Assembly (NCBI GenBank): GCA_963789265.1
Contig: CAWBKB010000007.1
Location: 64,001 to 128,000, forward strand
Reading direction: 5' to 3'
Length of the DNA: 64,000 nt
Source: an uncultured delta proteobacterium
Lineage (GTDB): Bacteria; Desulfobacterota; Desulfomonilia; Desulfomonilales; Desulfomonilaceae
Part shown: one piece after another, positions 9,597 through 51,616 of the stretch
Position numbering within the stretch: position 1 is the first letter of the stretch
Layout of the letters: every line of letters starts with the position of its first letter
Notes under the pieces: model-generated
What the model was told of the DNA's origin: nothing
Databases searched by the model: none
Seen by the model: only the letters and a program-made list of their open reading frames with translations
Translations under genes and position numbers: made by a program

Positions 9597-12500
9597 ATGA
9601 ATTCCCGTGATCGCAAAGCTGGGATCGTAGGATCGGAATGCACGAAAAACTGTGTGCGCGGTCGTCCCGAGCCTGCTGGGCAGCCTGAGCTTGAGGCCCC
9701 GGCCTGCAAAAGGCCCGAAGCAAGCGTCGATGCCGAGCCGTCTCACAACTCGATCAATAATATTCCGCACGCTGATCACGTTCCGAAATTCCTCGGAGAC
9801 AAAGTGCTTGCTTTGACCGATCCAGATGAAGGGCAACGCAAGCAAGTGACCATCCTTGTGGCAGATATTGCAGACTACTCCTCTCTTTCAAAAAATCTCA
9901 GTCCGGAAGAAGCATACGAGATCATAACTCGCTTCCTGGAGGTTCTCGAGGAACAGATCCGCTGTCATGGCGGGATTATGGCGCAGGTAAGCGAGGGAAC
10001 CGTAAAAGGCCTTTTCGGCGCACCGGCATCTGTTGAAGATCATGCAAAGAGGGCCTGCGAAGCAGCCTTAGCTATCCGCGAGTCGGTCGGTTCGCTTGCG
10101 AAAAAAGTTCGAAAAGAGAATTGCGTCGATCTGGGCATCCGAATCGGGCTTGTGTCGGATGTAATACTGACCGGCTCCGTTTCGGGCGGAGTCGAGCTGG
10201 ACTCAAGAGACCTGGACGACGCGGACGATCTGATTCCTGTGGTTCAGGGTCTTATGAAACCAGGCAAGATTGCGGCGGCGAGGAGCACATTTGACCTGGT
10301 AAGTGATTTCTTCGATTTTCAGCCGATAAAACAACACGAACGCGACGGTATTGAATTGGTTGTGGCTTATGAACTGCTGAAATCCAGGGAGCTTGCGAGC
10401 CCAATCCGGGCCAAGGAGTTAAAGGGCCTCAGCAAGTTTGTAGGCCGCGAACAAGAAATGTCGGTCCTCCTGGAAGCGGCGGAAAAAGCAAGACGAGGAC
10501 GCGGCCAGACGGTGGCGGTCACGGGAGATGCGGGAGTAGGGAAATCCAGGCTTGTTTTGGAATTGCAGAAACGCGTTCCGGAAGGGCAACAGATATTTCT
10601 TGAAGGCTACTGCCGCAATTATAATGCTGTTGGACCGTACGGGCGTGTCCTGGACATGCTGAGATCGATTTTCGACGTCCGGGCAGGGGAGAAGGAAAAT
10701 TCTGCCGGCAAGAAAATTAAGGATTGGCTGGCTCTTCATGTAGCCGGACACGATGAGATCGTTGCCCCGATGTATGAAATACTGGCTCTGAAGGTTGAAG
10801 ATGAGCGATACTCGCGTCTTCCCTATCAGCAAAAGAGAAGCAAGATTTTCCAGGCGGTTGAACGAGTGCTGGTTCAAACTAGCCGGCAAAAGCCGTTGAT
10901 AGCGATTGTGGAAGACCTCCATTGGATCGACCGGACTTCAGAGGAACTGTTGCGCCATTTGATCGGACGAATCAGCGATGCAAGGATCTTTCTCGTCATG
11001 CTCTATCGACCCGAGTACGCTGGTGCGTCACAGCTCGGTGCCGCTGTATCACAGGTTCACCTGGCTGAGCTGCCCGATGATCCCGCGAGAGAGCTTGCCG
11101 AATCCATCCTTGGCGGTGAGGCGGACGACAGCCTAATGAACGTAATTCGGAACCAAACTGCCGGTAATCCGCTATTCATAGAAGAACTCACCAAGGCATT
11201 CCTGGACAGCGGAGAAATTGAAATAGCTGACTACAGGTTTACCCTAATGCCCCATGCGCAAGCGCAATTGCTGCCGAAGACTATTCAGGGAGTCATCTCT
11301 GCGCGAATAGACCGCCTGGAGAAGGATGTCAAAACTACATTGCAGGTGGCATCTGTGATAGGGCGAGAAGTCCCTCTTCATCTGCTGGAGCGAATAACGG
11401 AATCAGGTGAGGATATCAGTTCTCACATTTCAAGGCTTCAGAAGCTTGAGTTCATTCATGGAGACAAAGACCGGCAGTTTGCGTTCAAGCACGCCCTCAC
11501 CCAAGAGGCGGCGTACACCAGCCTTTTGACACGGAGAAGGCTAAAAATTCACCATGAGACAGCTAAGGCCATAGAGAAACTTTATTCGGACAGGTTGGAA
11601 GAATTCTATGAGCAACTCGCCCATCATTTTGGCAAGAGCGGGAACTTACGAAAGGAGTTCAAGTACCTGAAACTCTCTGCACTCAAAGCAAGCCGACAGA
11701 AACTCGCACTGGGAGGCCTATCAATTCGGTAAACAGGCGCTACGCTGCCTGAAAAACCAGCCAGCGACTCTGCAAAACAAAAAGGAGGAAGTCGAAGTTC
11801 TGAAGATGATGAGCTGGCCCATGAGATCGTTGGATTATACTGGTGGAGGCACTGAACACCTCCTGAAACACGGGGAAGAGCTTTGTCTCGAAATAGGGGA
11901 TGCCAACAACTTGTCTTTTTTCAGAAACCGAGCTCTGCGTGTACTATGCCGTCACAGGCGACTCGATGTCGCTCCAACAATATTCAGGGCATGTATTTCA
12001 GGACATCCGGGTTTTGGGGTGCTCCTTGTCGACAAAGGAACATCTGAAAATCATGATTCCTCTATTCGTGAATCATTCTCTGTTAGGTCTCATGGGTGAC
12101 CGTGTCTCAGAGGTTCTTTCCGTGAACCTCAGTGTCCTCAAATATATGGAAGAGGCGCATGCGCTCTTTGACGCTTGGGACATGCCGTTCAATGCGTATT
12201 CATTCCTTGCCGCCACGTCCGCCTATTTTTTGAGTTGGCTCGGAGATTTTGACAATGCCACTAGGTTGTCTCGCAAAGCGCTTGATGTGGCCCTGAAGGT
12301 GAATGATCCCCTTTCTATGGGCATTGCAGAATTCTCTCATGGCCATGTGCATAATAATAGAGGCTTAGGCAAAGAGGCAATAGAGCACTACACAAGAGCA
12401 ATCGAACATTTGGAAAAGGTGAAAGGCGGCTCAGCCGGGGACACGTCGTTAGGAAATGCTTGGCAGGGACTAGGTATCGCCAAGTTCCTGGTGGGAGATG

Positions 12501-12970
12501 CGGATGGGGCTCGTGGTTGTATCGAACGGTCGATCCAGATGCATCTTGATTCCGGAGTCGTGATCGAGCTCCCCCACGATTATGCGTACTTGAGCATGGC
12601 ACATTTGGCCACAGGCGACGTGGCGAAAGCCCGTAATTTTATCGATACCGCCTTGGATTGGGCTCGGAAGTGCAACCAAAAACATTGGGAAGGCCTGGCG
12701 AAGATATTTTTTGGCAAGATAATGTCCCAGAGCGAAGCTCTCCAAGCAGCCAGGGCTGAGGCGTCAATCTTGGAAGGGATTGAAATTCTGTCGCAATTAG
12801 GCATGAAGCCATATTGTGCCCAAGGCTATTTCTATCTGGGGGAGCTTCGAGTTACTACCAGCAAATCACAACTCGGTACGAAAAACCTGAAAAAAGCCGA
12901 AAGAATGTTCAAAGAAATGGGAATGGAATACTGGCTGGATAAGACGCAGAAAGTTCTTGGCCGCATTTAG
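9597..12970 (+). CDS. Degenerate class III cyclase-like domain + STAND ATPase + TPR protein, copy 1 (frameshifts near 11703 and 11925)
   Basis: VTILVADI; FVGREQE; Walker A GDAGVGKS; Walker B IVEDLHW; GNPLF; FKHALTQEAAY; C-terminal TPRs; indels located by comparison with copy 2. Confidence 0.85.
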
Positions 12971-12991
12971 CGGCATGTTCGCTGGGGGATC

Positions 12992-15900
12992 ATGAAACCG
13001 CAAAAAAACAACCCGGGGAAACGTGAGAGCAAGAGAGAGAAGGCACATCGTCATGGATTGCCGGATCGCGGCTCCGCGATCAAAGAAAGCTTCCCAGGCC
13101 CCGCACTGGAATTTTTGGGAGACAAAGTCCTTGCACTCAGGAATGCGGAAGTGGATGAGCTGAAGTACGTGACCATTCTTGTTGCGGACATTCCTGATAG
13201 TTCGTCTCTCTCGCGCAAGCTAGCGCCAGAAGAAGCGTACGGTCTCATGGTCCGCTGCCTCGCTATCCTTGAGGAACAGATCCGCCATTATGGCGGGACC
13301 GTCGCGCAGGTCACCGGAGGAGTGGTCAACGGCCTGTTCGGAGCGCCGATGTCGCACGAGGACCATGCAAGAAGAGCCTGTGATGCAGCCTTGTCCATCT
13401 TGAAAAAAATCGACTTGTCCAGGCAAAAACTTCGCGAAGAGTTTAATGCCGATTTTCACATACGAATCGGATTGGTCTCGGGTGCGATCTTGACAAGCTC
13501 CTCAAAAGCGGGCGCCGGGCTGGAATATGAAGATTTGGAAGACGCGGATGATCTAATTTCTCCGCTTCAGGCGATCACACAGCCGGGAAAGGCCTTGGTG
13601 GCGAAAAGCACATACGATTTAACGAGTGACTTCTTTGAATTCAGGCCCGTGGAAACGAGCAGACCGGAAGGTCTCAAACCAGTTGATGCGTACGAACTCG
13701 TGAAGCCTCGCGAGCTTCCCAGCCCAATGCGAGCCAAAGAGATGAAGTGGCTCAGCAAATTTGTAGGCCGCGAACAAGAAATGTCGATCCTGCTGGAAGC
13801 GGCGGAAAGAGCAAGACGAGGACGCGGCCAGGCGGTGGCGGTCACGGGAGATGCTGGAGTTGGGAAATCCAGGCTTGTTTGGGAATTGAAGAGACGCCTC
13901 CCCGAAGGCGAACAGACATTTCTTGAAGGCTACGGCCGCAATTATGATGGTGTTGCACCGTATGGCCCCGTCCTGGACATGCTGAGATCGATTTTCGACA
14001 TCAAGGCAGGGGAAAAGGAAAGTTCTGCCAGCAAGAAAATTAAGGAGTGGCTGGCTCTTCAAGTAGCCGGACACGATGAGATCGTTGCCCCAATCTATGA
14101 GATACTGGCTTTGAAGGTTGAAGATGCGCAATACATGGAGCTTCCGTTTCAGCAAAAGAGAAACCGGATTTTCGAGGCGATTGAGACGGTCTTGGTCGAA
14201 GCAAGCCGGGAGAAGATGTTGGCGGTGATACTGGAAGATCTTCACTGGATCGACCGATCTTCAGAGGAAGTCTTAAATTATTTGATCCCAAGAATCGAGG
14301 GGGCCAAGATACTCCTGATCCTGCTGTACCGCCCCGAATACGCCGGCGCATCCAGCTTAGGCATCTCGTCCGAAGAAGTCCATTTGGGTCATATATCGTG
14401 CGAACACGTGAAGGAACTTGTGTCATCCGTCCTCGGCGGTCCGCAGATCGACGATGCTCTCATAAGATTGATTCAGGAAAAGACCGGCGGGAATCCGCTG
14501 TTCGTGGAGGAATTCACGCGGTCTCTGTCCGACGTCGGGGCTATTCAAAGATCCGGTGGGAAATTTGTCCTCGCACAGGACGCGTCAGCAGAAATGCTGC
14601 CCAAAACCATTCAGGCGCTCATCGCGGCACGAATGGACCGTCTCGATAAGGATGTCAAGGCAACATTGCAGGTTGCGTCCGTGATAGGCACTGGGTTTCC
14701 CATGGACTTGCTGCAACTTGTAACGAAAACCGGCGACGTATTGAAATCACACATAGCGAAGCTTCAAAAGCTTGAATTCATGCGCGAAGTACAGGCATCT
14801 CCTGAACGACAGTTTGCGTTCAAGCATGTCCTCACTCAAGAAGCCGCGTACGGGAGCCTCACGGCACGGAGAAAGCTGAGATTCCATCAAAGGACGGGTG
14901 AGGCTATAGAAGAGCTTTACTCGAACAGGCTGGAAGAATTTTACGAACAGCTTGCCCATCATTTTGGCAAGAGCGCGGATTTACAGAAACAGTTCAAATA
15001 CTTAAAACTGGCTGCAATCAAAGCAAGGCGACAGAATTCTCCCTGGGAGTCTTATCAATTCGGTAAGCAAGCGCTTCGCTGCTCGCAAGCGCAGCCGGCG
15101 ACTCAGCAAAACAAAAAGGAGGAAGTGGAAGTTTCTGAGGGTGATGACCTGGCCCATGAGAATGTTGGATTATACTCGTGGAGACTCTGAACAGCTCCTA
15201 AAACGCGGGGAAGAGCTTTGTCTCGAACTAGGGGATGCCAACGACCTGTCTTTTTTCAGGGCTGAGCTCTGCGTGTACTATGCCGTCACAGGCGACCCGA
15301 TGTCGCTCCAGCAATATTCAGGGCATGTATTTCAGGACATCCGGGCTTTGGAATGCGTCTTGTCGACAAAGGAACATCTGAAAATCATGATTCCTATGTT
15401 CGTGAATCATTCTCTGTTAGGTCTCATGGGTGACCATGTCTCAGAGGTCCTTTCCGTGAACCTCCGTGTCCTCAAATTTATGGAAGAAGCGCGTGCGCTC
15501 TTTGACGATTATGGCATGCCTTTCAACGTATATTCGTTTCTGGCAGCCATGTCCGCCTATTTTTCAACTTGGCTCGGAGATTTTGACAGTGCCGCGAGGT
15601 TGTCTCGAAAAGCGCTTGATGTCGCCCTGGAGACGAATGATCCTCTTTCTTTGGGCTTTGCAGAATTCTGTCACGGCCTTGTGCTCAATAATAGAGGCTT
15701 CGGCGAAGAGGCAATAGAGGTACTGCACAAGAGCAATCGAACATCTGGAAAAGTTGAAACGCGGCTCAGCCCCGGACACGACGTTGGGAAATGCTTGGCT
15801 GGGACTAGGTATCGCCCGCTTGCTGGTGGGAGATGCGGATGAGGCTCGTGGTTGTATCGAACGCTCGATCCAGATGCATATTGATTCCGGATTCGTACCC

Positions 15901-16320
15901 CAGTTCGCCCACGATTATGCATACTTGAGCATGGCACACTTGGTCACGGGCGACGTGGCGAAAGCCCGTGATTGTGTCGATTCCGCTTTAGACTGGGCTC
16001 GGAAGTGCAACGAGCGACATTGGGAAGGCCTGGCAAAGATATTTCTTGGCAAGATAATGTCCCAGAGCGAAGCCCTGCGGGCAGCCCAGGCTGAAGCGTC
16101 GATCGTGGAAGGGATTGAGATCCTGTCGAAATTAGGCATGAAGCCATATTGTGCCCAAGGCTATTTCTATCTGGGGGAGCTTCGAGTTAGTACCGGCAAG
16201 TCACAACTCGGTACGAAAAACCTGAAAAAAGCCGAAAGAATGTTCAAAGAAATGGGAATGGAATACTGGCTGCGCAAGACGCAGGAAGTCCTGGACCGTT
16301 TTGAAAAGTTGCCCCGATAA
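12992..16320 (+). CDS. Degenerate class III cyclase-like domain + STAND ATPase + TPR protein, copy 2 (frameshifts near 15133 and 15720)
   Basis: Tandem paralogue of 9597-12970 with the same motifs. Confidence 0.85.
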
Positions 16321-35799: not shown

Positions 35800-36090
35800 T
35801 TTCGGAATTATCTGCTTTATTTCTGGAGGAGATCAACTCGACTTATATCGGCCGATTTTTTCGTCGTGTTGCGACTGCGAGGATACTCCGATTCTGGAGT
35901 TGAAGAGGACGCAACGGCATAGCGCAGAAGGTGATAAATGATGCCGTTGCCTCGTCTGCATTCGGAACGATTGGCGACCCCGCCTGCTGTTTGACTATCT
36001 GTACTAAGTGGAAATTCTGAGGAGAGCTTTTGGAGGCTCCTTTCCTTGACTATTCCACGTCAATGGCGTACTAATGTACAGGGAGCAGCA

Positions 36091-36408
36091 ATGGTCTTCA
36101 TCGAGACTCCGATCTTCACCCGGCAAGTACAGGATGACCTCTCGGAAGATCAGTATAGGGATCTGCAAGACGAGTTGAGAAAGCACCCGGACGCCGGGTC
36201 TAAGATCAAAGGGTCAGGAGGTCTTCGAAAATTGCGCTGGGCGATAGAAGGCCAAAGAAAGAGTGGCGGAGTGCGAGTCATCTACTATTGGGTGGCCGCC
36301 CAAGATCGGATTTTCATGCTCTACATGTACGCAAAAAACAAACAGGGTAATCTCACTCCCGAACAACTCAAGGTACTTAGGAAGGCCGTAGAAAAGGAAT
36401 TGTCATGA
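36091..36408 (+). CDS. RelE/HigB-type toxin
   Basis: FIETPIF...GSGGLRKLRW...KSGGVRVIYY...YAKNKQGNLT. Confidence 0.92.
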   Translation: MVFIETPIFTRQVQDDLSEDQYRDLQDELRKHPDAGSKIKGSGGLRKLRWAIEGQRKSGGVRVIYYWVAAQDRIFMLYMYAKNKQGNLTPEQLKVLRKAVEKELS

Positions 36409-36740
36409 AGGAAGAAATGTTCGAAGAACTTCTCGAAAGCGTCCGGCAAGCCGGGGCCATAATGAGAGGCGAACAGAAACCTTCGAGGGTTTTTGAGGTT
36501 GAAGCACCGGATGTTAAGGCTATAAGAGCCACATTTGGAGTTTCTCAAGACGAGTTTGCTTCCCTGCTCGGGATCAGCGTAAGAACGCTTGAGAACTGGG
36601 AGCAAAAACGTCGGATACCCAAAGGACCGGCTCGTGTCCTGTTAGAGGTCGCTGCCGTCCACCCGGACGCTGTGTGGGACGTGGTGCGACATGCGAGACA
36701 AAATCGAGAGCGCGGGAAATCCCGGGGGCACAATACTTAA
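36405..36740 (+). CDS. HTH antitoxin (HigA/NadS-like)
   Basis: FEELLESVRQA...DVKAIR...SQDEFA...TLENWEQKRRIPKGPARVLL; ATGA overlap. Confidence 0.9.
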   Translation: MKEEMFEELLESVRQAGAIMRGEQKPSRVFEVEAPDVKAIRATFGVSQDEFASLLGISVRTLENWEQKRRIPKGPARVLLEVAAVHPDAVWDVVRHARQNRERGKSRGHNT

Positions 36741-40657: not shown

Positions 40658-40863
40658 TACTGATTCGCTTTCAAACAAGTGAGAATCGGCAATGGCAAAC
40701 GGCACTGACCTGGCGCCATCACGGCGCTTCCCGCGGGACGCGGGATGGCACCCGGAATTTCATGAATAGATGTTGGGTGCCACGGACCTGGGCTTTGGCA
40801 GGTCCGTGCTGTATTCATCGTTTGAACACGAACTGGTATCACTTGCTTGAAAGCGAATCGGTA
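40658..40863. mobile_element. MITE-like element with 25-bp TIRs and TGA target duplication
   Basis: TACTGATTCGCTTTCAAACAAGTGA / TCACTTGCTTGAAAGCGAATCGGTA (23/25 match); TGA at 40655-40657 and 40864-40866. Confidence 0.8.
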
Positions 40864-41693
40864 TGAGCGCACGGAATGGTCATCTGCTAATTCTGTGGGC
40901 AGCCATAGTCTGTGTCGTGCTCTTTTCGGTTGCACCTTTCGCTTGGTTTGCCCTGCTTGCGTTCAAACCGCACCTAGAAATTACTGCGATTCCGCCGGCT
41001 ATATTTCCCGGGCACATTTCCTCGGAGGCCATGTCCGCTGCAATCTTCAAACATGGCCTGCTGCATTTCCTAAAGAATAGTATGATCGTTGCAGGAATTA
41101 CCACAGCAGTTTGCGTGACTGTCGGAACACTCGCGGCTTATCCGCTGGTACGACTCCCAATAAAGTTCAAAAGAACTATCCTTCTGTTGATCCTGGCTGC
41201 GGGGATGTTTCCTCAAATTTCAATAGCAGGTCCGGTCTGGAGAATTCTGCTCGGCCTGGGTTGGCTCAATACATATCAGGGGCTCGTTCTGCCTTATTTG
41301 GCTCTCACATTGCCGATCACTGTTTGGATACTTGCCAATTTTTTCGGCGAGCTTCCTCGAGAATTGGAAGATGCGGCCAAAATAGACGGTGCAAACCTTT
41401 TCCAGATCTTGGGCAGGATAATTCTGCCGTTGGCTGCGCCGGGCGTCTTCACCGCGGCGATACTGACCTTTATCTATTGTTGGAACGAATTCTTTTTTGC
41501 TCTGCTCATCATGACACGCAGTGATTTTCAGACGCTTCCGGTGGGAATCGCTTTATTTCCGGGGCAGTACACCTTGCCCTGGGGAGAAATAGCCGCGGCT
41601 TCGATTGTAACCACCATGCCGCTGATTCTGTTGACGGTATTTTTTCAGAAACGCATCATTTCGGGACTAACCGCGGGGGCGGTGAGGGGATAG
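40863..41693 (+). CDS. Sugar ABC transporter permease (MalG-like)
   Basis: LKNSMIVA, LPRELEDAAKIDGA, WNEFFFAL, FQKRIISGLTAGAVRG. Confidence 0.93.
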   Translation: MSARNGHLLILWAAIVCVVLFSVAPFAWFALLAFKPHLEITAIPPAIFPGHISSEAMSAAIFKHGLLHFLKNSMIVAGITTAVCVTVGTLAAYPLVRLPIKFKRTILLLILAAGMFPQISIAGPVWRILLGLGWLNTYQGLVLPYLALTLPITVWILANFFGELPRELEDAAKIDGANLFQILGRIILPLAAPGVFTAAILTFIYCWNEFFFALLIMTRSDFQTLPVGIALFPGQYTLPWGEIAAASIVTTMPLILLTVFFQKRIISGLTAGAVRG

Positions 41694-41830
41694 AGGAATT
41701 GTGGTCAAGCATTGGACTGGAAATTGGAGACGAAAGCCAGTCTCGCTTCGTGCGTATTTTTGCTCGCGTTGGACAAACAGAGAGACATGCTGCGATCTCA
41801 CGCGAGCACGGATCAAGACCTGCCCCCAAT

Positions 41831-41913
41831 ATTCATTAACTCACGTTGTACATGTTACTCGAAGTCGCGCGCTCAGAAATGAGCCAAGAGCAGATCTGAC
41901 CCCTTTTGACCCC
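41831..41913 (-). repeat. R1: divergent, inverted copy of the GGGGTC...GACCCC hairpin repeat
   Basis: Reverse complement begins GGGGTCAGATCTGCTCTTGGCTCATTTCTGAGC; duplicated end TGACCCCTTTTGACCCC. Confidence 0.7.
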
Positions 41914-41975
41914 TTTTCTTTTCAAACATTAGTTGGCATCAGCCAGTCAGTTTCCGAGCAGCGGAACAATCCTAT

Positions 41976-42809
41976 TTAGGGGCAATCATGTATTGGGCTT
42001 TCCTTGGCTCCGTGTGCCCTCAAGAGTTCTACGATTTCATCACTTGCTGCCCAATCCAGAGCAGTAGTGCAATGCATGCCGCCTACGTGATTGATATCCG
42101 GCCCCTTGTCCAACAGGGCCTGCACTATCTCTACATTACCATCCGATGCAGCGAACATCAGTGCTGTCCAACCACTGTCATCTTTGGCATTGACATCGGC
42201 TCCTTTGGCCAAAAGTAACTTCACGATCTCAAGATGTCCACTTCCCGAGGCTTCCGAGAGCGCTGTCCGTTCATACTCACCCTTGGCATTTACGTCCGCA
42301 CCCTTGGCCAATAGAATCTTAATTACCTGCAGATGACCATGTCTGGAAGCCCCCGCAAGCGCTGTCCCGATATCCTGGCCATCTATGCCCTTTTCCAGGA
42401 ACTCACGAACTTTTTCTGTATCCCCGAGCATAGCTGCTACTTCCAACGTGAGTATGGCTCCTCGTTGTTTCAGCAACTCAGCCATTCTTCGGCGACCCCA
42501 ACAAGCGGTGAGCCAGATTGCCGTTTTGCCATACCACCCTGTTGCATTGATGTCGGCCCCATTGTCCAGCAACAGATTGACAGTTTCCAGGTGATCGCCA
42601 TAGACGGCTCTAAGGAAGGCTGTGTCACCACGCTTGTCTTTCGCATTGACATCGGCCCCTTTGGCCAAAAGGTCTTGCACCTGCTTCAAGTCGCCCTTCA
42701 AAGCCGCTTCCGTTAACGCATCCTGATCATTCGCAAAGCTCTCGTAACAGAAAACTGACAAAACAATGAGCAGCGCTGTTGCCACTATGCCAATTCCGAG
42801 TCTGTGCAT
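41976..42809 (-). CDS. Exported ankyrin-repeat protein
   Basis: Signal peptide; repeated G.TAL..A...GHLEIVKLLLAKGADVNAK. Confidence 0.93.
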   Translation of the reverse strand: MHRLGIGIVATALLIVLSVFCYESFANDQDALTEAALKGDLKQVQDLLAKGADVNAKDKRGDTAFLRAVYGDHLETVNLLLDNGADINATGWYGKTAIWLTACWGRRRMAELLKQRGAILTLEVAAMLGDTEKVREFLEKGIDGQDIGTALAGASRHGHLQVIKILLAKGADVNAKGEYERTALSEASGSGHLEIVKLLLAKGADVNAKDDSGWTALMFAASDGNVEIVQALLDKGPDINHVGGMHCTTALDWAASDEIVELLRAHGAKESPIHDCP

Positions 42810-42905
42810 CTATGAATCCCTCCCTCCCGCAACGTCGTCTCATGAGGGTGCAATTGTTCAGCTAAGTGGATGACCCCACTACTATTCGACGAAAGGGGTC
42901 GGAAA

Positions 42906-42986
42906 GGGGTCAGATCTATTCTTAACTCATTTCCGAGCCGCTTGACAGGAAGCCACCCGCAGAATATGAGTTAAGAGCAGACTTGA
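42906..42986 (+). repeat. R2: 85-bp hairpin repeat split by the IS (last bases CCCC at 44502-44505)
   Basis: GGGGTCAGATCTATTCTTAACTCATTTC...GAATATGAGTTAAGAGCAGACTTGA|CCCC; aligns ungapped with R3 and R4. Confidence 0.88.
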
Positions 42987-43058
42987 TAATCATAAAAAGG
43001 CACCTCTGAGTCGGGAATGTGGTATCCCCGACTTGCCATTAACCGTAGGAGGTGCCCG

Positions 43059-44078
43059 ATGGAAGTATATGCGGCGCTTGATCTTCATGCAAGCAACAGT
43101 TATCTGGCGGTGGTAGAGCGAGAAGGAAAGAGGGTGTTCAACAGGAGGCTTGTTAATGATTCGGCTGTTCTCTTGAATGCCCTTGAACCTTACAAGGAAG
43201 GTATGCAAGGCATAGCAGTGGAATCCACCTTCAACTGGTACTGGGTTGTGGATGCGATGATGGAAGCGGGATACCGAGTGCATTTGGCCAATCCTACCGC
43301 TATACAAAAATACAGTGGAATGAAACATTCCGATGACAATAGCGATGCATTTTGGTTGGCGGAAATGTTACGCTTAGGCATTCTACCTGAGGGATATATA
43401 TATCCACGGGAAGAGCGCCCGGTGAGAGACCTGCTACGCAAACGGATGCATCTGGTCAAGCTGAGAACCTCACTTATTAACAGCCTGCAAAATATCCTCG
43501 CTCGTAGTATGGGCGTGAAGATTGGGGCCGCCAAGATAAAACAACTGACTAATGATCTTGTTTCACCGCTCTTGGAGCAGGACGAGAACCTGGCTCTGAC
43601 CGGCCAGGTGAGCAAGCAGAGCATAGATTTCCTCACGCGACAAATCAAGAAGGTTGAAAAGAAGGTTCAAGGGAAAATCGAATTGAAGAAGGAATATGCT
43701 TGCCTGACGACCATCTCCGGCGTGGGGGTTATCCTGTCGCTCACCATCATGCTTGAAACAGGCCCCATAAGTCGTTTTCAGGCTGCGGGGAACTATGCGT
43801 CCTATTGCAGAAAGGTTCCGACTCGCTGGACCAGCAACGGGAAGAGCAAGGGAACAGGTAACAAGAAGAATGGCAACAAGTACTTGGCATGGGCCTTTTC
43901 CGAAGCTTCGGAACTCGCCCGGCGCTTTGATCCGGCAATCAGAGCCTGGTTCGATCGGAAGGTATCCAGGACCAACCGTATGTGCGCTCACGCCGCGCTG
44001 GGCCACAAACTGGCACGAGCGGCGTATTATATCATGAGGGACCAAGTTCCCTTTGACAACAAGAGGCTTATTGGTTAG
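43059..44078 (+). CDS. IS110-family DEDD transposase/recombinase
   Basis: ALDLH, VEST, HSDDNSDA (DEDD); TISGVG, TSNG (catalytic Ser region), GNKYLAWAFSEA; AGGAGG RBS. Confidence 0.95.
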   Translation: MEVYAALDLHASNSYLAVVEREGKRVFNRRLVNDSAVLLNALEPYKEGMQGIAVESTFNWYWVVDAMMEAGYRVHLANPTAIQKYSGMKHSDDNSDAFWLAEMLRLGILPEGYIYPREERPVRDLLRKRMHLVKLRTSLINSLQNILARSMGVKIGAAKIKQLTNDLVSPLLEQDENLALTGQVSKQSIDFLTRQIKKVEKKVQGKIELKKEYACLTTISGVGVILSLTIMLETGPISRFQAAGNYASYCRKVPTRWTSNGKSKGTGNKKNGNKYLAWAFSEASELARRFDPAIRAWFDRKVSRTNRMCAHAALGHKLARAAYYIMRDQVPFDNKRLIG

Positions 44079-44084
44079 ACGACT

Positions 44085-44345
44085 GGCGTAGGCGGCGACC
44101 CTGAGTAGGGGTTGGAAAAACCACCAGATTTGATTGGGCAGCCGCCTACCCCACAGATCCGGGGAGCCGGACTCTTTGCCGCCCATGCTGTGAGCCACTA
44201 AAGGGTTGGTTCAAAACCATGAGATTTGTCCTATTCCTCTTGGACACAGCATGGAACCGAAGATTTTCTGGTCCGCAATAAGCGGAAGGGGCAGGACCTC
44301 TAAGGTCCATGCCTTGATCCTGATGGGTGACTGGTGCGGTGAGGA
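44085..44345 (+). ncRNA. Bridge/seekRNA of the IS1111-group element (boundaries approximate)
   Basis: Stem 44088-44096/44141-44149 encloses AGGGGT and CAGATTTGA, matching the target; GATTTTC (44262) and ATGGGTGA (44323) resemble the circle junction. Confidence 0.75.
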
Positions 44346-44601
44346 TAACTACCGACACCACCTGAGAGAAGTACCGGCAAAGGCGAAGAGCAGGCGCTGA
44401 CGGACGCTGTGCGAAACACGGCCGTACTCTCAGCAAGGAAACGATTCTTTCCTTGCTACAGGAGAGTCTTTTCCCTTGACAGAGGGCCTTTTAATGGGCG
44501 ACCCCTCGTCCAGCAGCGGTGCAAAAAAAACTTCTTTTTCGTGTCCGTCAGCCGTCCCCGCCTTCCAACACATACAAATTCAGCGATTTTGCCGTTTACC
44601 G

Positions 44602-46899
44602 TTATTCTATCGACGGCTTCAGCTCCGGGACCGTTTTCCACTGATTGACATAAGTCATGATCGCGGCCATCACCAACGGAATGACGCCGAACGCGATAAA
44701 GACACTGTCACCGGGCAAGCGTATCCATTCAATTGTCCTTGCAAACCCCTGGTTAAGGTAGGTAAGCCCGCGCGCATGCCAGTACCCGTGGACCAGTACG
44801 TTGTGCAACTGCAGGATGCCGCCCGGGAAAAGAGTGCACACGATCATAAGCGCCAACCCAATGTTCAAACCCCAAAAGGATACGCGTATGTATTTTTCAA
44901 TGCGCGCCCATTGCATGTCTGTTGACGCCTGGCGAAAGGCAAGGACCATGAGGGCTACCGCCTCCATACCGAATACGCCCATTAGCGCAGCGTGACCGTG
45001 GTTTGGCGTAAGCATCGTGCCCACTTCGAAATAACTTACGATGGGCAGATTGATCAGAAACCCGAAGATGCCTGCACCGACGAAATTCCAAAAGCCTACG
45101 GCCATCAGGAAATAGAACGTCCATTTATGCGGGATGGCGATCGGTTTTCCACAGACGTCGCACGTGCCCCTGGTCAACTTGATGAAGTCCCAGGCATCCA
45201 GCGTCAAAAGGGTTAGCGGGACAACTTCCATGGCCGAAAATAAGGAGGAAAGGGCGAGGTTTACATTGGTCTGGCCCGTCCAATACCAGTGATGGCCTGT
45301 GCCGATGATTCCGCTTCCCAGAAACAGGATGGCATCCAGGTAGATAACCCTGACCGCTGTATTGCGCGCGACCATGCCCAGCCTGTAAAAGGTGACGGCT
45401 ACCATCGTCGTTACAAAAAGTTCGAAGAAGCCCTCGACCCACAGGTGGATGATCCAGAAACGCCAGTTGTCAACAATGGAATACTCCGTGGTACTTTTGA
45501 AGAAGAAGGCCGGCAGGTAGAAGACGGGGATCGTCAAGGCCGATATCATGAAAAGCCACGATATTTCCTTGCGCTCAGGATCTTGGAGGGCGGGCGTAAT
45601 CGCCCGGTACACCAGGATGGCCCAAAGCACCAGTCCCAGGGCGAGAAGGATTTGCCAACCCCGGCCGAGGTCCAGATACTCCCAACCCTGGTGCCCAAAC
45701 CAGAACCAGAATTTGCCGAGGAGTTGATCGATGCCCAGCAGTTCTCCCAGAAGACTTCCGCCAACAACTATCACCAGCGCCCAGAAAAGCAGGTTTATTC
45801 CCTTCACCTGCCCCTTGGGTTCGTATTCTCCCAAAGCGCTGCCAAGCAGCAGGCCGCCCCCCACAAAGGCTGTAGCAATCCAGAAAATGGCCAACTGAAG
45901 GTGCCAGGTTCGCAGGATAATGCTCGGAAACACATCGTATAAAGGAATCCCGTAGAAGCTTCCCGGCTCTGCCCTGAAGTGCGCGGTAGCCCCGCCTACA
46001 AGCACTTGCGCCAGGAAAAGGAGGGAGACCACAAGGAAAAACTTGATGGTCGCTCTCTGGGTCTCACCAGCCCTGCCGGGCAACATTTGCGGATGGATGT
46101 GCGGCCTTGCTCCCCTCCAGCCAAGGTAATCGAATCTGCCGAAGGCAAACAACACCACAGCCGTGCCGACAAGAAGAGCAATAAGGCTTATGGCGCTCCA
46201 GAGCACGGCGTTACCTGGCGGAACATTGCCCACCAGCGGGTCGTAGGGAAAATTGTTGGTGTAAGTTACCGAGCCGCCCGGGCGGTTTACCACCGAAGCC
46301 CAGGCTGCCCAAGCAAAAAATGCCGTAAGTTCCTTCAGTTCTTTGGGATTGCTGATATAGTCGGGCCTAAGTCCGCCGTTCAGGTCTGGCGAGGAGAAAT
46401 AATGTGTCCACAGGCCCACCTGCTCCTTGTAAGAATTCGCCTCCGGGTCGGTGAAAACCAGTGTTCGGGTCCTCGGGTCGTAGCGGTTTTGTTTCAGAAG
46501 GAGTCTGACTTTGTCTTCAACGGTCGCCCGCTCTCCTCGTGACGGTTGGTTCACGTCGTGGCCGAAGAGCTTTTGAGCCATGGTATTTGCAGCTTCGACG
46601 CCAAGGGTGTGAAGGTAAGCTGCCGAAAAATCCGGTCCGAGGTAGGCCCCATGCCCCCAGAGAGTACCATTTTCCATGAGCCCGTACTTCTCAAACACCT
46701 TCTGGCCTGCCAGGATTTCTTGCCCGGTCAAAAGTGTCTTCCCCGAGGTGGTCACTATTTTCTCTGGAATCGGCGGAGCGTCGCGGTAGGCAAGGACTGC
46801 AACCAGAATCAGGACTGAAAACCCCGCCAGCACTACGAGAATTACCGCACGCACCCACCAGGGTGATAGTCCTTCATCCATTTTTTCAGCAGGTGTCAT
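44602..46899 (-). CDS. norB: Quinol-dependent nitric oxide reductase (qNor)
   Basis: WGHGAYLGPDFSA, YTNNFPYDPLVGN, RTWHLQ, HLWVEGFFE, GTGHHWY, NHGHAA; RBS before ATG 46899. Confidence 0.95.
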   Translation of the reverse strand: MTPAEKMDEGLSPWWVRAVILVVLAGFSVLILVAVLAYRDAPPIPEKIVTTSGKTLLTGQEILAGQKVFEKYGLMENGTLWGHGAYLGPDFSAAYLHTLGVEAANTMAQKLFGHDVNQPSRGERATVEDKVRLLLKQNRYDPRTRTLVFTDPEANSYKEQVGLWTHYFSSPDLNGGLRPDYISNPKELKELTAFFAWAAWASVVNRPGGSVTYTNNFPYDPLVGNVPPGNAVLWSAISLIALLVGTAVVLFAFGRFDYLGWRGARPHIHPQMLPGRAGETQRATIKFFLVVSLLFLAQVLVGGATAHFRAEPGSFYGIPLYDVFPSIILRTWHLQLAIFWIATAFVGGGLLLGSALGEYEPKGQVKGINLLFWALVIVVGGSLLGELLGIDQLLGKFWFWFGHQGWEYLDLGRGWQILLALGLVLWAILVYRAITPALQDPERKEISWLFMISALTIPVFYLPAFFFKSTTEYSIVDNWRFWIIHLWVEGFFELFVTTMVAVTFYRLGMVARNTAVRVIYLDAILFLGSGIIGTGHHWYWTGQTNVNLALSSLFSAMEVVPLTLLTLDAWDFIKLTRGTCDVCGKPIAIPHKWTFYFLMAVGFWNFVGAGIFGFLINLPIVSYFEVGTMLTPNHGHAALMGVFGMEAVALMVLAFRQASTDMQWARIEKYIRVSFWGLNIGLALMIVCTLFPGGILQLHNVLVHGYWHARGLTYLNQGFARTIEWIRLPGDSVFIAFGVIPLVMAAIMTYVNQWKTVPELKPSIE

Positions 46900-46996
46900 C
46901 TTTTCTCCCTCCTTGATTACACTTCCGGTTCCTTTCTCAATCAGAAAGCGTTCTGCACCAACCCTCTGTGACCTCAACGTATTGCAAGATGAAAAC

Positions 46997-47081
46997 GGGG
47001 TCAAATCTATTCTTAACTCATTTCCGAGCCACTTGATAGGAAGCCACCCGCGGAATATAAGTCAAGAGCAGACTCGCCCCC
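46997..47081 (+). repeat. R3: 85-bp hairpin repeat
   Basis: GGGGTCAAATCTATTCTTAACTCATTTCCGAGCC...GTCAAGAGCAGACTCGCCCCC. Confidence 0.88.
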
Positions 47082-47134
47082 CCGTCATGCGCTTCTTGAT
47101 TTCTCGCCGATCAGATGAGGTCATCCCAAGTTCC

Positions 47135-47485
47135 TCATGGGTGTGGAGTTATTGCTATGATCATAATTTGGTCTATTCCGGGACCGTAGCACCAGAAAAG
47201 TCGGTAAGCACCAGGGGTACTCTGCTGAACATACGCCTCGAACACTTTGCTTCCGGGCGTATGAGGGTGTCGCTTGGAATGGAATTCATGGGTGTTCAAT
47301 CCTGAGTGCCGAGGGTTTTCTTTTAAGAGATCAACACATTTCTTCACTTGCTTGAAAAGACCTTCGGAACGAGATACTTTGGGCCTCCCCTTCCTTTGTC
47401 TGGCTTCTAACGATGAAATGGCCTCAGCTTTCAGCCGGTCGTAGGTCTCTCGTGCCTTTTGCGTCCAAACAAGGGTGAACGCCAT
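47135..47485 (-). CDS. Putative RelE-fold toxin
   Basis: ENPRHSGLNTHE...VFEAYVQQSTPGAYRLFWCYGP...IIAITPHP; directly after an AbrB-like gene. Confidence 0.75.
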   Translation of the reverse strand: MAFTLVWTQKARETYDRLKAEAISSLEARQRKGRPKVSRSEGLFKQVKKCVDLLKENPRHSGLNTHEFHSKRHPHTPGSKVFEAYVQQSTPGAYRLFWCYGPGIDQIMIIAITPHP

Positions 47486-47486
47486 C

Positions 47487-47753
47487 CTAATCCTCAAGCT
47501 GATCCACTAGGGCTTGATCAGCATGTAGATCAGGGGGAGGGCTGAACGTCCCTGCTTCGGCTTGCTCTAAACCGATCTCGAGCAGAGCCTTGGCTTCAGG
47601 ATTCTTATAAAGCCAAAGCTCCCTCTCCGGTATGACTGCAGCGAGTTCCAGTTTAAACTCCGTTTCGCCAATCTTTTCAAAGAGGACCGTCTTATTGGCG
47701 AACTCTTTGCCGAGATTGATTCGACCTCGTGAATCTACTTTCCTCGTTTCCAT
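47487..47753 (-). CDS. Putative AbrB-like antitoxin
   Basis: RKVDSRGRINLGKEFA...IPERELWLYKNPEA...GLEQAEAG; AAGGAG RBS. Confidence 0.75.
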   Translation of the reverse strand: METRKVDSRGRINLGKEFANKTVLFEKIGETEFKLELAAVIPERELWLYKNPEAKALLEIGLEQAEAGTFSPPPDLHADQALVDQLED

Positions 47754-47951
47754 GATGGTGTGTCTCCTTAGACCCAGGATATCATCAGAGCTTACCCGCG
47801 TCAAATGGGTAGATGGGCTAAACCCACATCGATAGGACATTCCAGCTAAGGCGTGTGTTCCTTCTTGATTCCACCGCTTGGAAATCGTTTCTGCCAAAGG
47901 GGTCACATCTGCTCATGGCTCCTTTGTGAAAAGGGGAAAAGGGGTCAAAAA

Positions 47952-48036
47952 GGGGGCAGTTCCACTCTTAACTCATTTTCGAGCCGCTTGATAGGGAGCC
48001 ACCCGCAGAATATGAGTCAAGAGCAGACTTGACCCC
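47952..48036 (+). repeat. R4: 85-bp hairpin repeat, preceded by a half copy (47899-47921) and AAAAGGGG(TC) end duplications
   Basis: GGGGGCAGTTCCACTCTTAACTCATTTTCGAGCC...GAGCAGACTTGACCCC. Confidence 0.88.
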
Positions 48037-48215
48037 TCGCCCAGCTTCGTTTCAATATTCACACCCCGCACGCTGTATGTCAACCTGTAGCTCGTGTAGG
48101 ATGGGGTGAATTCCGTATCTTGCGGATTGAACCGTCAGGCGTGTCGCGGGACTCGCGCCAGACTCGAATGATGCGGTTTCCTCCGTTCGCGACATCCTAC
48201 CAATGCCTCAAAGCT

Positions 48216-48773
48216 TTACAAGAAGGGGTTTTTTTCATCAGTCCATACCAGACGGCATTCAAAACCCTTCAGCTTTGTAGCCTTAACCCGCTCGACGAAA
48301 TCATCAGTGACTAAGACATCCATTAAAACCGCCTGCGGGATCTTGAACACCTTTAGGCCTACAAGACGATTTGGGAAAAAAGAATAACGGACGATATACA
48401 TGATTCTGCCGCTGCTGAACCGCTTCACTTGAGAATTCTCTTCATTCAACGTATCAACAACGCGAGTTACATTAAACAAAAAATAGTCTTCGCCATCGCA
48501 GGTTATGGGCAGGAGTTCCCCGTTTCCTTCCAGCATATCAGCTAAGGCATTCACAGCTTTACGATTAAATACTGGAATGTGGCTGCTCAAGCCTGGAAAA
48601 TCTCCAACCAAACGAGGAGCCTTGTAGAATTCAAATTTTCGTTCTTTGCCCGTCCAAGTATACTTTATTGTCCTGCCATCGAAACGCCGGCTGAACTCCA
48701 CAATGCCCTTCTCACTGCCATACAATAGGCTTCGATACTTATTGACATCTGGGCGAAGTACATAAACTTTCAT
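48216..48773 (-). CDS. Putative polymorphic-toxin immunity protein (Imm11/DUF1629-like)
   Basis: GDFP, ELLPI...YFLFNV..VVDTLNEENS, FKIP...VTDDFVERV...LKGF; directly downstream of the AHH toxin. Confidence 0.75.
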   Translation of the reverse strand: MKVYVLRPDVNKYRSLLYGSEKGIVEFSRRFDGRTIKYTWTGKERKFEFYKAPRLVGDFPGLSSHIPVFNRKAVNALADMLEGNGELLPITCDGEDYFLFNVTRVVDTLNEENSQVKRFSSGRIMYIVRYSFFPNRLVGLKVFKIPQAVLMDVLVTDDFVERVKATKLKGFECRLVWTDEKNPFL

Positions 48774-48783
48774 GAATCGCCTC

Positions 48784-49625
48784 CTATTTAGGGAACGTGC
48801 CTTTGGACAGTCTGCTGCGGATGTCTTTCAGGATCGCATCGCTTCCTCTCTTGTGGAGGCCTGGGACAGCAAGTTCTCAACTTCCTGGTAATACTTGGTT
48901 GTGTGGACCCCCGGATGATAGACGCCCATGCCAGCCCCTGTCTTGTACGGCAGCGGGATCTCATTTTCAATATCATCAATCTTGATTCCGAAATTGTCGA
49001 GTATCTCACCAGACTTTCCGGCTCGTGGAGCACTTTCGGCCACAATATGGTGTGAAGCATGACCTTCCGGCTTAGGAATTCCGGCTTTCTCGAGGTTCTT
49101 TCCAAGTGTTCTCGATGAGCCGATAAAGGGTAGCCAACTGGTTAACGTGTCCCAAGTATCCTGAAATACTTGCCATAATTTGGCCGCGGCTTCTGCCTGT
49201 CTGTAAGCCGCCAATACCCCTTTTCCAAAGCCTTGCGCATAAGGAGAATTGTCGTTGGGATCACACGGAGGCAACTTTTCTTTGTTCCAGATGAGTTTTT
49301 GGGCGGTGTAGTATCCCTCCCAATAACTCGGATCATCCTCGGGTCTGCCTTCTGTCTTCGAGCGGCTAGCCCCTTTTGCATCTACATCTCTTCCCAACAC
49401 GACTGATTTGTCTTGTGTCTGCGAGTTTGCTTCCGTTCCAAAATGCTTCTTCACCGATTTCAGCAAATCCGCTACAGGCCCGCTTTCGTACTTGAGTGCC
49501 CTGTCCACATATCTGTCGACTTCTTTCGGATCTATCCGATTTTCATTTCTTGCTCCTCTGCGGCTTCAGCTATACTCCGGGTGGGTAGCGAACCACCATC
49601 GCCGTTGGTCCTCGGTTTCAATCAT
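48784..49625 (-). pseudogene. AHH-type HNH nuclease polymorphic toxin (in-frame TGA at 49566-49568; frameshift near 48838)
   Basis: AGGAG RBS; MIETEDQRRWWFATHPEYS*SRRG continues in frame into ORF 48828-49508; C-terminal HASHHIV...DIENEIPLP...HPGVHTTKY. Confidence 0.75.
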
Positions 49626-50108
49626 CCATTATTCTCCTGTCATCAAAGTGCAAATGTGAGACCACAAGTGAGGCGGATGAATTAAGGCTCGTTACTGAGT
49701 TGATTTAGCGAGATATTTGAGAATAAATGAGGTTAAGATTTATTTGGACTAATCTGAGGACTAGCTAATATAATTAGGCCCCTCTACTTTAATGGTATCA
49801 TAGAGAGCCTACGCGTCAATGATTCAATAGAAAACTTAAGCCACGCCAGATTTTGTAAAGGCTGGAGCCTCGGTCGGTTTAAGATTTGCTTGTCCGAAGC
49901 GAACGGCATCGCTTCCGAAGCGATCAAGATAATTCGGTGGCAGCAGCTATCCGGGAGCTTACCTTAAGAGTACAGAGTTCTTTCGCGAGATCGGCTTGCC
50001 GGGCCGACCCCGGCATCATGGGTTACCGGGCAGATCCTGGTAACCCGGGCAAAAAATCGTTTAATCCACATCTCACCCGAAATCCCAAACACGAACAACG
50101 AAACAGTC

Positions 50109-51407
50109 TTACGGGTTATCTCCTTGTCCCCCTTCTATGGCAGTCGGCCGCTCATGAACATCCCACATATCTGCATCGGTGAAGCAGCGCTCACTCTCGT
50201 CGGGTCGCATGGCATCCTTCTCCATCTTTCGGCGATCATAACTCGGATCAAGGACCTGATTATAGTATTCGTGCTGGATAAGCAGATTCATGATCTGGCT
50301 GGTGCCGGTCCATATCATGGCAAGTCGTGTGTCTCTGACGGCCCGTTCTATCGGGTAAACATCGGTATAACCGATTCCTCCCATGATCTGCATCGCGTTG
50401 TTTACCACGTTCCATGCCGCCTGAGTGGCAAAGCTCTTGGCCTCGCTGACAAGGCGCCTCGCGTAAGGATAGTTGTTATCCACCGCACGTGCTGCGCAAT
50501 ATGCTAGTCCACGAGCTGCATCCAGTTGCGTAATGGACTCGGCAACCATGAAGTTGACGGCCTGAAACTCTCGGATGTGTTTGCCGAAGGCTTTCCGCCG
50601 ATTGGAATACCTTACCGCCAGGTCAAGAGCGCCCCAAATGCCCAGACAACCTGCCGCCGAGGTCAGACGTTCCGGGATCATCATTTGGTTAAAGCAGGCC
50701 GCACCGCTGTGTAGTTCGCCGATAAGGTTTTCCTTCGGCACTTTGACATCCCTGAAGACCAGTCGTCCGGTCCCGCCTCCCTTGCACCCCATCAGTCCAT
50801 ACAGGTACTCTGTTTCCACGCCGGGGCCCTTCTCCACGATTAACAGACTCAGTCGATTGTACTTGTGGCAATTGGGCTCGAAATTGGTCCGGCAATAAAC
50901 CACGAAAAAGTCAGCGCCTTCGGCTCCCACCACGAACCGCTTTTGTCCGGTGAGAACAAAGTGATCGCCATCGAGAACCGCCTTAGTAGTGGCGCCAAAA
51001 AAGTCAGATCCTCCCCTTGGTTCGGTCAAAGCCTCGGCAGCTACGAATTTCCCTTCGACATAGGGTTTGAGATACTTTTCTTTTTGTTCTTCCGTACCGA
51101 ACTTATTCAGGGCTTCCCCCACGATGGAAGGCATTACAAATGCACATCCGAGAGCCATGCCAAGACAACCGATCTCTTCAGTGGCTGCCACTTCAGCCAC
51201 CCAGGACATGCCTCTTCCTCCATAACGCTCGGGGAACCGAATTCCTCGGAGATTGCGTTTGGCCAGTTTTTCCACGAACTCGCGAGGATAGGTGATTTCA
51301 TCTTTATCCATCTGCCTCAAGAACTCGCTTGTCACTTCCGCACGTACAAAATCGCGTGCCTCCTGCTTCAAAGCCTGCTCTTCAGGTGTAAGCAAGAAAT
51401 CGTACAT
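50109..51407 (-). CDS. Acyl-CoA dehydrogenase
   Basis: ALTEPRGGSD, GQKRFV, RKAFGKHI, QIMGGIGY, IWTGTSQI; AAGGAGG RBS before ATG 51407. Confidence 0.93.
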   Translation of the reverse strand: MYDFLLTPEEQALKQEARDFVRAEVTSEFLRQMDKDEITYPREFVEKLAKRNLRGIRFPERYGGRGMSWVAEVAATEEIGCLGMALGCAFVMPSIVGEALNKFGTEEQKEKYLKPYVEGKFVAAEALTEPRGGSDFFGATTKAVLDGDHFVLTGQKRFVVGAEGADFFVVYCRTNFEPNCHKYNRLSLLIVEKGPGVETEYLYGLMGCKGGGTGRLVFRDVKVPKENLIGELHSGAACFNQMMIPERLTSAAGCLGIWGALDLAVRYSNRRKAFGKHIREFQAVNFMVAESITQLDAARGLAYCAARAVDNNYPYARRLVSEAKSFATQAAWNVVNNAMQIMGGIGYTDVYPIERAVRDTRLAMIWTGTSQIMNLLIQHEYYNQVLDPSYDRRKMEKDAMRPDESERCFTDADMWDVHERPTAIEGGQGDNP

Positions 51408-51616
51408 CAGTACCTCCTTTTTTCCCTTCTTCACGGAAACCGCTGCATATCGCTTCAAAGTTAGCGGTTACCTGGTTCCTGTCAATCAGAACCGGTCGAG
51501 ATGGATGCATGAGCGGGGATTACCTGCTGTTGATTGATTTGTCAATCAATTCTTTCGGCTGCCACGCCAGCAACCTGTTCTTTGGAAAATACGGTCTCGT
51601 ATTCTGGTTCAACAGC

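Follow-up and report, generated by a model that had tools for sequence, protein, structure and literature searches.

Introduction

TIRtrons, or TIRYT elements (Di Nocera 2013, PMC3733652), correspond to subclass 2.1.2 of the TnpA-Y1 transposases (Quentin 2018, PMC6006769) and to group 1 of the RAYTs, the tyrosine transposases associated with repetitive extragenic palindromes (REP) (Bertels 2017, PMC5581495); here and below, published systems are described as in the available portions of the cited reports. Among other mobile elements linked to gene arrays, pseudo-compound arrays of the IS26/IS6 insertion sequences (ISs) are thought to grow by insertion beside a resident copy (PMC7986276), and composites of TIME miniatures have been proposed as a gene capture system (PMC4133298), while members of the IS1111 group target attC and REP sites (PMC11187229). 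In this work we analyse an array of unrelated genes separated by short repeats in a 64,000-nt stretch of DNA, hereafter the window (positions 64,001 to 128,000 of contig CAWBKB010000007.1, assembly GCA_963789265.1), from an uncultured bacterium of the family Desulfomonilaceae, and we relate these repeats to the terminal inverted repeats (TIRs) of a TIRtron whose Y1 HUH enzyme is encoded elsewhere in the same genome.

The element class is already known, and the evidence of cargo arrays appears to be what is new for it. The literature searched for cassette arrays based on HUH or RAYT enzymes offered nothing on point save a preprint on prochlorosin genes (bioRxiv 10.1101/2020.03.09.984088); the TIR family may nevertheless be listed in Di Nocera 2013 (Figure 9 or the supplementary material) or in subscription papers. 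The arms of the repeats are the TIRs of the element, the doublets of one array tend to have their spacer subtype and their orientation in common, and the cargo turns over at repeat ends and has arm-free copies elsewhere. We put at roughly 60% the reading, drawn from comparisons of sequence, that the Y1 enzyme acts in trans to join the outer GACCCC ends of the miniatures to foreign DNA, units of cargo plus one repeat accreting in this way beside a resident copy as a direct-repeat array.

Results

Repeats of the array and their parent element

The repeat unit is a doublet of 87 nt in which a pair of inverted arms, each of 26 nt, encloses a 35-nt spacer; this corrects the 85 nt given in the first-pass annotation of the window. 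Three copies lie on the plus strand, namely R2 (42892..42986, with a duplicated end at 42892-42902 followed by the left arm, the spacer and the right arm to its TGA core; its tail GACCCCT, at 44500..44506, is the right half of an IS target), R3 (46996..47082) and R4 (47930..48037, with tandem end duplications at 47930-47950 and the doublet at 47951-48037). As previously annotated, they align without gaps (R2 as 42905-42986 plus the tail), with 73, 74 and 69 identical positions of 82. The divergent inverted copy expected near 41831 was found as R1 at about 41836-41904 on the minus strand, a doublet of another spacer subtype with a decayed left arm. A GACCCC end duplication follows it (41905-41914), and its decayed arm abuts an end of a sister TIR family (CAAGACCTGCCCC, 41814..41826, plus strand), a motif occurring at 8 places in the genome. 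Both the short tandem duplications at repeat ends and the half copy near 47899 are present, the latter as a single arm (47898..47923, minus strand) also found in the congener G001. Hereafter, the genome of the window is G000 and its congeners, 76-98% complete, are G001 to G006. The names of close protein relatives likewise suggest a Desulfomonilaceae-type host.

Mapping the repeat profile across G000 by a weight-matrix search retrieved 53 arms, compared with 2 in a shuffled genome, and 12 doublets were recognised. Arm ends are of the GGGGWSAS type, GGGGTCAG/C matching it in full and GGGGTCAA at 7 of its 8 positions. The doublets had been described as long imperfect hairpins. As single-stranded DNA, however, they fold only weakly to moderately (8 folds, z between +0.43 and -2.91), and even the best fold, that of the R4 minus strand, was equalled by 3 of 200 shuffles. 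Likewise, the repeats are miniatures of a TIR-flanked element and not canonical REPs: the arms of R3 and R4 lack a GTAG or GGAG foot, a single GGAG falling in the R4 spacer. No Rfam match was obtained at E <= 0.5 for a known-RNA reading, the non-coding region downstream of the IS transposase gene included, and the arm pattern was not found in viral_contigs when phage carriage was checked.

The full element consists of an arm, a gene and a second arm. Two such units of 1,037 bp occur in G000, both outside the window (C1:91547-92583 and C4:127843-128879); they are 99% identical, have different flanks and carry intact enzyme genes whose products are 99.4% identical. This agrees with the earlier expectation of a Y1 HUH enzyme encoded beyond the window. 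Of the two enzyme types to be sought next to repeat copies, a RAYT or a tyrosine recombinase, it is the Y1 enzyme that lies between arms: none of the 12 genome matches to PF00589 falls in the window, although a single arm is found some 0.4 kb away from the one at C5:382282. The enzyme (P0001, 320 aa) contains a Y1_Tnp domain (PF01797) over the cut-off, with HYH and YIHRNP motifs, and a C-terminal Bac_DnaA_C domain (PF08299; 43.1 bits, cut-off 31.5) that matched DnaA domain IV chains in the PDB; its score with NF047646 was 65.8 bits, under the cut-off of 80. In its six closest full-length orthologs (53-80% identity) the gene is accompanied by both arms in five cases and by one arm in the sixth. 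No target-site duplication was visible around the two full elements, and exact empty sites for these and for a two-doublet unit on C1 were not found in five congeners.

Elements of 384, 335 and 233 nt in G009, a genome of another genus, keep both arms together with the ends of the gene and form an internal deletion series, so that the known size forms are 1037, 384, 335, 233 and 87 nt. Miniatures thus descend from the full element by internal deletion; the 35-nt spacer was not traced to the gene. Taken together, the array repeats are very probably miniatures of a TIRtron/TIRYT, the 87-nt doublet being the smallest.

Other repeats and elements deserve mention in their own right. Further families of short intergenic hairpin repeats occur in the window between 20691 and 60698 (for instance at 28736, 30865, 38350, 51614, 58758 and 60585). 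Repeats of a second family, some 100 nt long and terminating in CAAGACCTGACCC, are represented by five copies in the same orientation at G000:C1:578670-586079 (L011 and its flanks), an array that encloses one 87-nt doublet and one IS right-end stub. In G014, about 30 enzyme matches were found, many at contig ends, and each listed arm adjoins one match; a recent burst of the full element is likely there, judging from these matches.

Exchange of cargo at the locus

The array lies between two conserved flanks, a malG-type ABC permease gene on the left (40863..41693, plus strand; PF00528, 89.9% identical to its G001 ortholog) and an acyl-CoA dehydrogenase gene on the right (50109..51458, minus strand; Pfam). 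Homology to G001 ends at the malG stop codon and resumes at 50109. Rather than the same gene order without repeats, the congener has repeats at this locus with different cargo: its malG to acyl-CoA-dehydrogenase interval contains four doublets of the window subtype and has only 46991-48045, from R3 to R4, in common with the window. The remainder of that interval includes a FitA-like antitoxin with an apparent toxin start cut by the sister TIR, an ISL3 relic and a methylase-Vsr block, restriction-modification-like, that lacks a closing doublet. On a contig of run X5, malG is joined to a doublet by a different route, which makes a third allele.

Between R1 and R2 lies an ankyrin-repeat protein gene (41976..42809, minus strand; Pfam), whose only relative in 122 genomes of the class is an arm-free copy in G081, 76% identical; the match stops at 42888, 4 nt short of the duplicated end of R2. 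The next cargo gene encodes a quinol-dependent nitric oxide reductase (qNor; 44602..46899, minus strand; PF22085 and PF00115), and its DNA was found in only 2 of 121 other genomes of the class. One of its copies, in G001, resides elsewhere in an arm-free context and is 96.9% identical, with flanking genes at 88-92%. The match stops 5 nt from R2. At this point it has entered the beginning of a gene for an NRAMP transporter, which is whole in G001 (a 433-aa PF01566 open reading frame) and is reduced in the window to a 5'-end stub cut at the end of R2 (44511..44575, minus strand). Such a position is the one anticipated for breakpoints under exchange at repeat ends.

Between R3 and R4, a small unit of two genes (47135..47753, minus strand) is the sole cargo in common with the G001 array. 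The first-pass annotation called it a toxin-antitoxin (TA) pair, which goes beyond the evidence, since Pfam, NCBIfam, PADLOC and PHROGs gave no match and the putative toxin had none in the PDB; the unit is TA-like by layout only. Beyond R4, genes for an AHH-nuclease toxin and its Imm11 immunity protein (48216..49508, minus strand; Pfam) are not found at this locus in G001, and the AHH gene following R4 is apparently interrupted. The ankyrin, qNor, AHH nuclease and Imm11 assignments of that annotation were all confirmed by Pfam, while its description of one unit per interval, all on the minus strand, overlooked a plus-strand IS110-family transposase inside R2.

As separate observations, the beginning of the AHH toxin gene and the DNA just upstream of it (49429-49757) recur at 82% identity at G000:C7:229567-229895, and similar toxin-gene starts precede different toxin domains in G004, G005 and G023, as in a polymorphic toxin family with a shared N-terminus. 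Outside the array, the window also holds a tandem duplication of about 3.33 kb (10344-16021; 78-91% identity) and a RelE-like toxin with a helix-turn-helix antitoxin (36046-36740).

Cut cargo and its donors in other arrays

An array in the congener G002 comprises seven doublets over 10.4 kb. Two segments that are 352 nt apart in the arm-free locus of G006 stand 3.5 kb apart in G002, the filler being a scar, three doublets and three cargo pieces. One 553-bp piece, on which the AHSA1 gene is complete, has both of its cuts close to element ends, and an arm-free locus of the same genome matches it at 97% identity. For a methyltransferase cargo, five genomes of another family contain copies with 90-93% identity, the acyl-CoA dehydrogenase flank there reaching 72-74%, and adjacent G002 pieces match different arm-free loci in different genomes. 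For a tally of donors, 19 loci were picked by hand from the high-identity matches, partly for close-looking ends, and none of them bears arms. After merging, 7 of 20 alignment ends, representing 6 distinct doublet ends, fell within 25 nt of a doublet end, as do 7.6% of intergenic positions. At the junctions, the native continuation missing from the array is agreed on by three genomes in one case and by two loci in another. Cargo orientation is mixed in G002; in the window it is single, with the NRAMP stub in addition.

Two features of G002 were set aside. A GAAATGGGTGACCCCT scar was considered as a clean excision footprint and rejected, because the same string ends many IS right-end stubs; it is at least as likely to be an IS residue, judging from that identity. 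An RRM-arfB block first taken as cargo belongs to the backbone, as indicated by its synteny with G006.

Similar cuts occur in other genomes. A contact-dependent inhibition toxin-immunity unit in G004 is cut 5-6 nt from the element ends in comparison with a longer form in G005, and a unit between two doublets in G015 is 79% identical to a region of G000:C8; the left junction coincides in the two and bears an arm in each, and on the right side there is a cut 6 nt before the right doublet. At L126:7079-8781, a gene for a 519-aa DRT8-like reverse transcriptase of anti-phage defence (PADLOC, E 9e-111) stands alone between two doublets of the same subtype. Deletions starting from ends are also evident: at C6:464886-465253 a doublet adjoins a 3' stub of the enzyme gene, and arms followed by IS right-end stubs were seen in G000, G001, G002 and G004.

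Clustering and distribution of doublets

In G000, 5 of the 12 doublets have a neighbour within 5 kb, compared with 0.22 expected, and none of 5000 random placements reached as many. Arrays occur in the same genus (G001, G002 and G004) and in two others, represented by G015 and by G009, which includes a 335-nt miniature; pairs were found in L124 and L126. They are thus present in at least three genera. The strict doublet pattern was detected in 5 of 41 genomes, which understates its spread, as looser arm patterns were met in 9 of 11 relatives. In five genomes (outside G000, only the fetched regions were counted) spacers of 28 near pairs had a mean identity of 0.82, while the mean of 139 far pairs was 0.58. 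Wherever spacer identity in a near pair was >= 0.7 (23 pairs), the two doublets had a common orientation.

One further observation concerns G004, where the same three-doublet array with its flanks appears on two contigs (L106:1-4500 on C61 and L204:4200-8600 on C7), with a frame break in one cargo copy, either as a segmental duplication or through strain mixture.

An IS1111-type element inside R2

The right arm of R2 is interrupted by an IS110 element of the IS1111 type (42987..44501, ends +/-3 nt, plus strand). Its DEDD transposase gene (43017..44078, likely start 43059, plus strand) matched PF01548, PF02371 and NF033542 (184.7 bits, cut-off 140). Downstream, a non-coding region (44079..44501, plus strand) is predicted to specify a seek or bridge RNA, with target-like guides at 44108 and 44125 and a donor-like guide at 44323, and matches both target halves and the donor end. 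The element has subterminal inverted repeats and a TTGACA box at its right end. G000 contains three full copies, 99-100% identical and all within an arm; insertion took place at TGA|CCCC in 3 of 3 of these and in 5 of 5 copies examined in relatives, one of them in the sister TIR family. A guide-like 9-mer differs between copies (CAGATTTGA, CAGACTTGA and CAGATCTGA among window 44079-44501, L185, L041, L042, L045 and L046), and in L185, a metagenome copy, the changed guide matches the changed target exactly, a natural guide-target covariation.

About 12 IS right-end stubs (…AATGGGTGACCCC) without a remaining IS were also recorded in G000 (among them C1:407576, C1:580152, C1:696227 and C8:85213), where the IS was repeatedly deleted from its left side. 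At L013 (G000:C1:1413338-1414996), an IS copy is bordered by a doublet that is duplicated in part, and each of the two IS ends meets the TCA of a different arm.

Discussion

A model for accretion and the points against it

The breakpoints described above lead us to infer active capture, and a sequence of events can be proposed on their basis. A miniature would first hop beside a gene on incoming or chromosomal DNA; a second, one-ended joining on the far side would then give a unit of miniature plus cargo, as a circle or a cointegrate. A resident miniature might then serve as the entry point of this unit, either because the enzyme targets its ends, with duplications of the TGACCCC-TTT-TGACCCC kind as the trace, or by recombination across the 87-nt homology, and the cargo could afterwards be trimmed by deletions starting at repeat ends. 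The cut fragments, the gene stubs and the mixed orientation elsewhere indicate that the units are not purpose-built cassettes. More tentatively, and stopping just short of favouring it, we suggest that TIRtron miniatures could be the recombination sites of an integron-independent, HUH-driven accretion in which the doublet is duplicated with each acquisition. Of the gene-capture platform envisaged in the first-pass annotation, the independence from attC and the exchange at repeat ends stand, whereas the active character of the capture would be a deduction from the breakpoints.

Several observations weigh against this model. Seven of the 12 doublets in G000 stand alone, frequently next to ordinary genes, and many arms adjoin metabolic genes, so that the clustering of the other five is only part of what was expected of repeats not scattered evenly between core genes. 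In G002, 13 of the 20 alignment ends lie away from doublets, and the p value of 5e-4 for the breakpoint excess is optimistic, because the donors were selected by hand. The upstream end of the qNor match is 62 nt from R3. End duplications occur on only 11 of 48 arms, with a background of 6%. We found no case of one cargo unit occupying two unrelated loci with the junctions on either side intact. Circle-type joints were absent among those listed for 4 runs, a result of no evidential value, as these are assembled contigs from which rare forms are dropped. In G004, arrays mix spacer subtypes (near pairs 0.57, far pairs 0.61), and the shared orientation observed in general could reflect replication-strand bias. 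Finally, a search with the G000 enzyme found no intact enzyme gene in the six congeners, whose arrays may consequently be relics.

Alternative explanations

Some of these points would be equally expected if the locus were a passive hotspot, at which cargo arrives through islands, ISs or recombination. In that case the miniatures would hop in locally afterwards, the region being tolerant of them, and by deleting DNA next to their ends would pare islands down to cassette-like pieces while importing nothing themselves. Deletions at arm ends are frequent and could by themselves trim islands that arrived otherwise; the enzyme-gene stub at C6:464886-465253, the IS right-end stubs and the gene stubs in cargo are of this kind, solitary doublets outnumber arrayed ones in G000, and in the G001 interval an ISL3 relic occurs, as does the restriction-modification-like block that no doublet closes. 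On the other hand, the different donors of adjacent G002 pieces imply that DNA reached one spot more than twice, independently and each time with an element end as its boundary, and the 352-nt gap of G006 is replaced in G002 by pieces with both outer junctions at or near element ends. A passive origin, unlikely in our estimation, is nevertheless the main alternative, and even so HUH miniatures would reshape variable regions as IS26 does.

The bridge-RNA recombinase of the IS1111 element might itself be the integrase, targeting the arms and delivering or rearranging cargo. Its guides appear programmed against the arm, as the constant insertion point in G000 and its relatives illustrates, and some junctions are marked by IS right-end stubs. 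However, its insertions split arms at the TGA core. Cargo, by contrast, is attached to arms that are intact, following GACCCC and a filler, which leads us to regard the IS as a parasite of TIRtron ends. Moreover, no IS sequence is present in the arrays of G009 (L198 and L200) or in L124/L126, and we hold a role of this recombinase as integrase to be very improbable.

Fainter still is the prospect that the doublets are REP-like RNA or DNA hairpins kept by the host as terminators or mRNA stabilisers and homogenised by gene conversion between poorly conserved genes. The window copies are all intergenic with T-rich outer flanks (T comes first in 36 of 48 arms), and some doublet positions are common to congeners, as such a role would have it. 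Yet their weak folding, the lack of an Rfam match and the mixed orientation of G002 cargo are at odds with it, and it leaves unexplained the cut gene stubs and the abrupt loss of 90-97% identity at repeat ends.

Another reading would take the locus for a CALIN, a cassette array of the integron type that lacks an integrase, whose attC sites are atypical. Intervals of one or two genes flanked by hairpins in direct orientation, cargo of TA-like, restriction-modification and defence types, and the IS1111 targeting known for attC sites (PMC11187229) could suggest it. This reading is largely refuted, given that no IntI over the TIGR02249 cut-off was found in 16 genomes of the family including G000 (5 of 9 sister-family genomes were positive), that attC cores (RYYYAAC/GTTRRRY) are absent from both strands of R3 and R4, and that the arms belong, as TIRs, to a Y1 gene.

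Significance and comparison with known systems

If the accretion model is correct, metabolic, toxin and anti-phage genes would be gathered in arrays much as integrons add cassettes or CRISPR arrays add spacers, an additional route to accessory and defence genes that integron scanners miss, with a very small cis-acting DNA integration unit. It would also provide a function for subclass 2.1, the largest RAYT-like subclass, found in 14.9% of strains (Quentin 2018, PMC6006769). Y1 transposases of this subclass are widespread, with more than 7,000 relatives. The locus and its relatives supply a named enzyme together with a 26-nt end and a minimal putative substrate of 87 nt, as well as natural products whose junctions are mapped.

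With integrons and CALINs the array has in common its layout, its cargo types and an IS1111 parasite on the repeat; it differs from them in lacking IntI and attC cores and in its cut cargo fragments, mixed orientation and variable filler. The REP/REPIN systems of RAYT groups 2 and 3 likewise combine inverted short palindromic arms with a spacer, place a Y1 gene between the same arms and are targets of IS1111. In contrast, the arms described here have no GTAG/GGAG foot, number about 50 instead of hundreds and form cargo arrays, and whereas the enzyme gene of those groups is single-copy and does not move, here the unit moves whole and exists in two 99% copies.

IS26/IS6 arrays resemble this one in the alternation of direct-oriented copies with cut cargo and in their intramolecular deletions (PMC7986276). 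IS26 is a coding DDE element, though, while the repeat studied here is an 87-nt non-coding miniature on which a HUH Y1 enzyme would act in trans. A miniature inverted-repeat element mobilised in trans also brackets and carries host DNA in TIME and TIME-COMP, which depend on a Tn3 DDE enzyme, produce a target duplication and form two-copy composites (PMC4133298), as opposed to a multi-unit HUH arrangement with no duplication seen. In the prochlorosin case, a subclass 2.1 enzyme and its fragments occur among variable genes and a role in recombination was proposed, the authors later noting that causation is neither strongly supported nor opposed; that system, as far as the preprint describes it, involves one gene family, not unrelated cargo, and no breakpoints at TIR ends (bioRxiv 10.1101/2020.03.09.984088). 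The element within R2 has the DEDD transposase, subterminal inverted repeats, downstream non-coding region and specific target of the IS1111 group (PMC11187229), and the 87-nt doublet, short, non-coding and carrying the TIRs of an autonomous partner, is comparable to a miniature inverted-repeat transposable element.

The closest likeness is to the TIRtrons themselves, which combine a Y1 HUH enzyme having a Bac_DnaA_C tail with long flanking TIRs near a GGGGWSAS motif (PMC3733652, PMC6006769, PMC5581495). Their TIRs are moderately abundant and occur singly, as dimers or in groups, to be compared with the 53 arms and 12 doublets of G000. The descriptions compared mention neither arrays of direct repeats whose cargo is exchanged, nor breaks at the ends of TIRs, nor a deletion series; in the present genome, the whole element is also duplicated at 99% identity.

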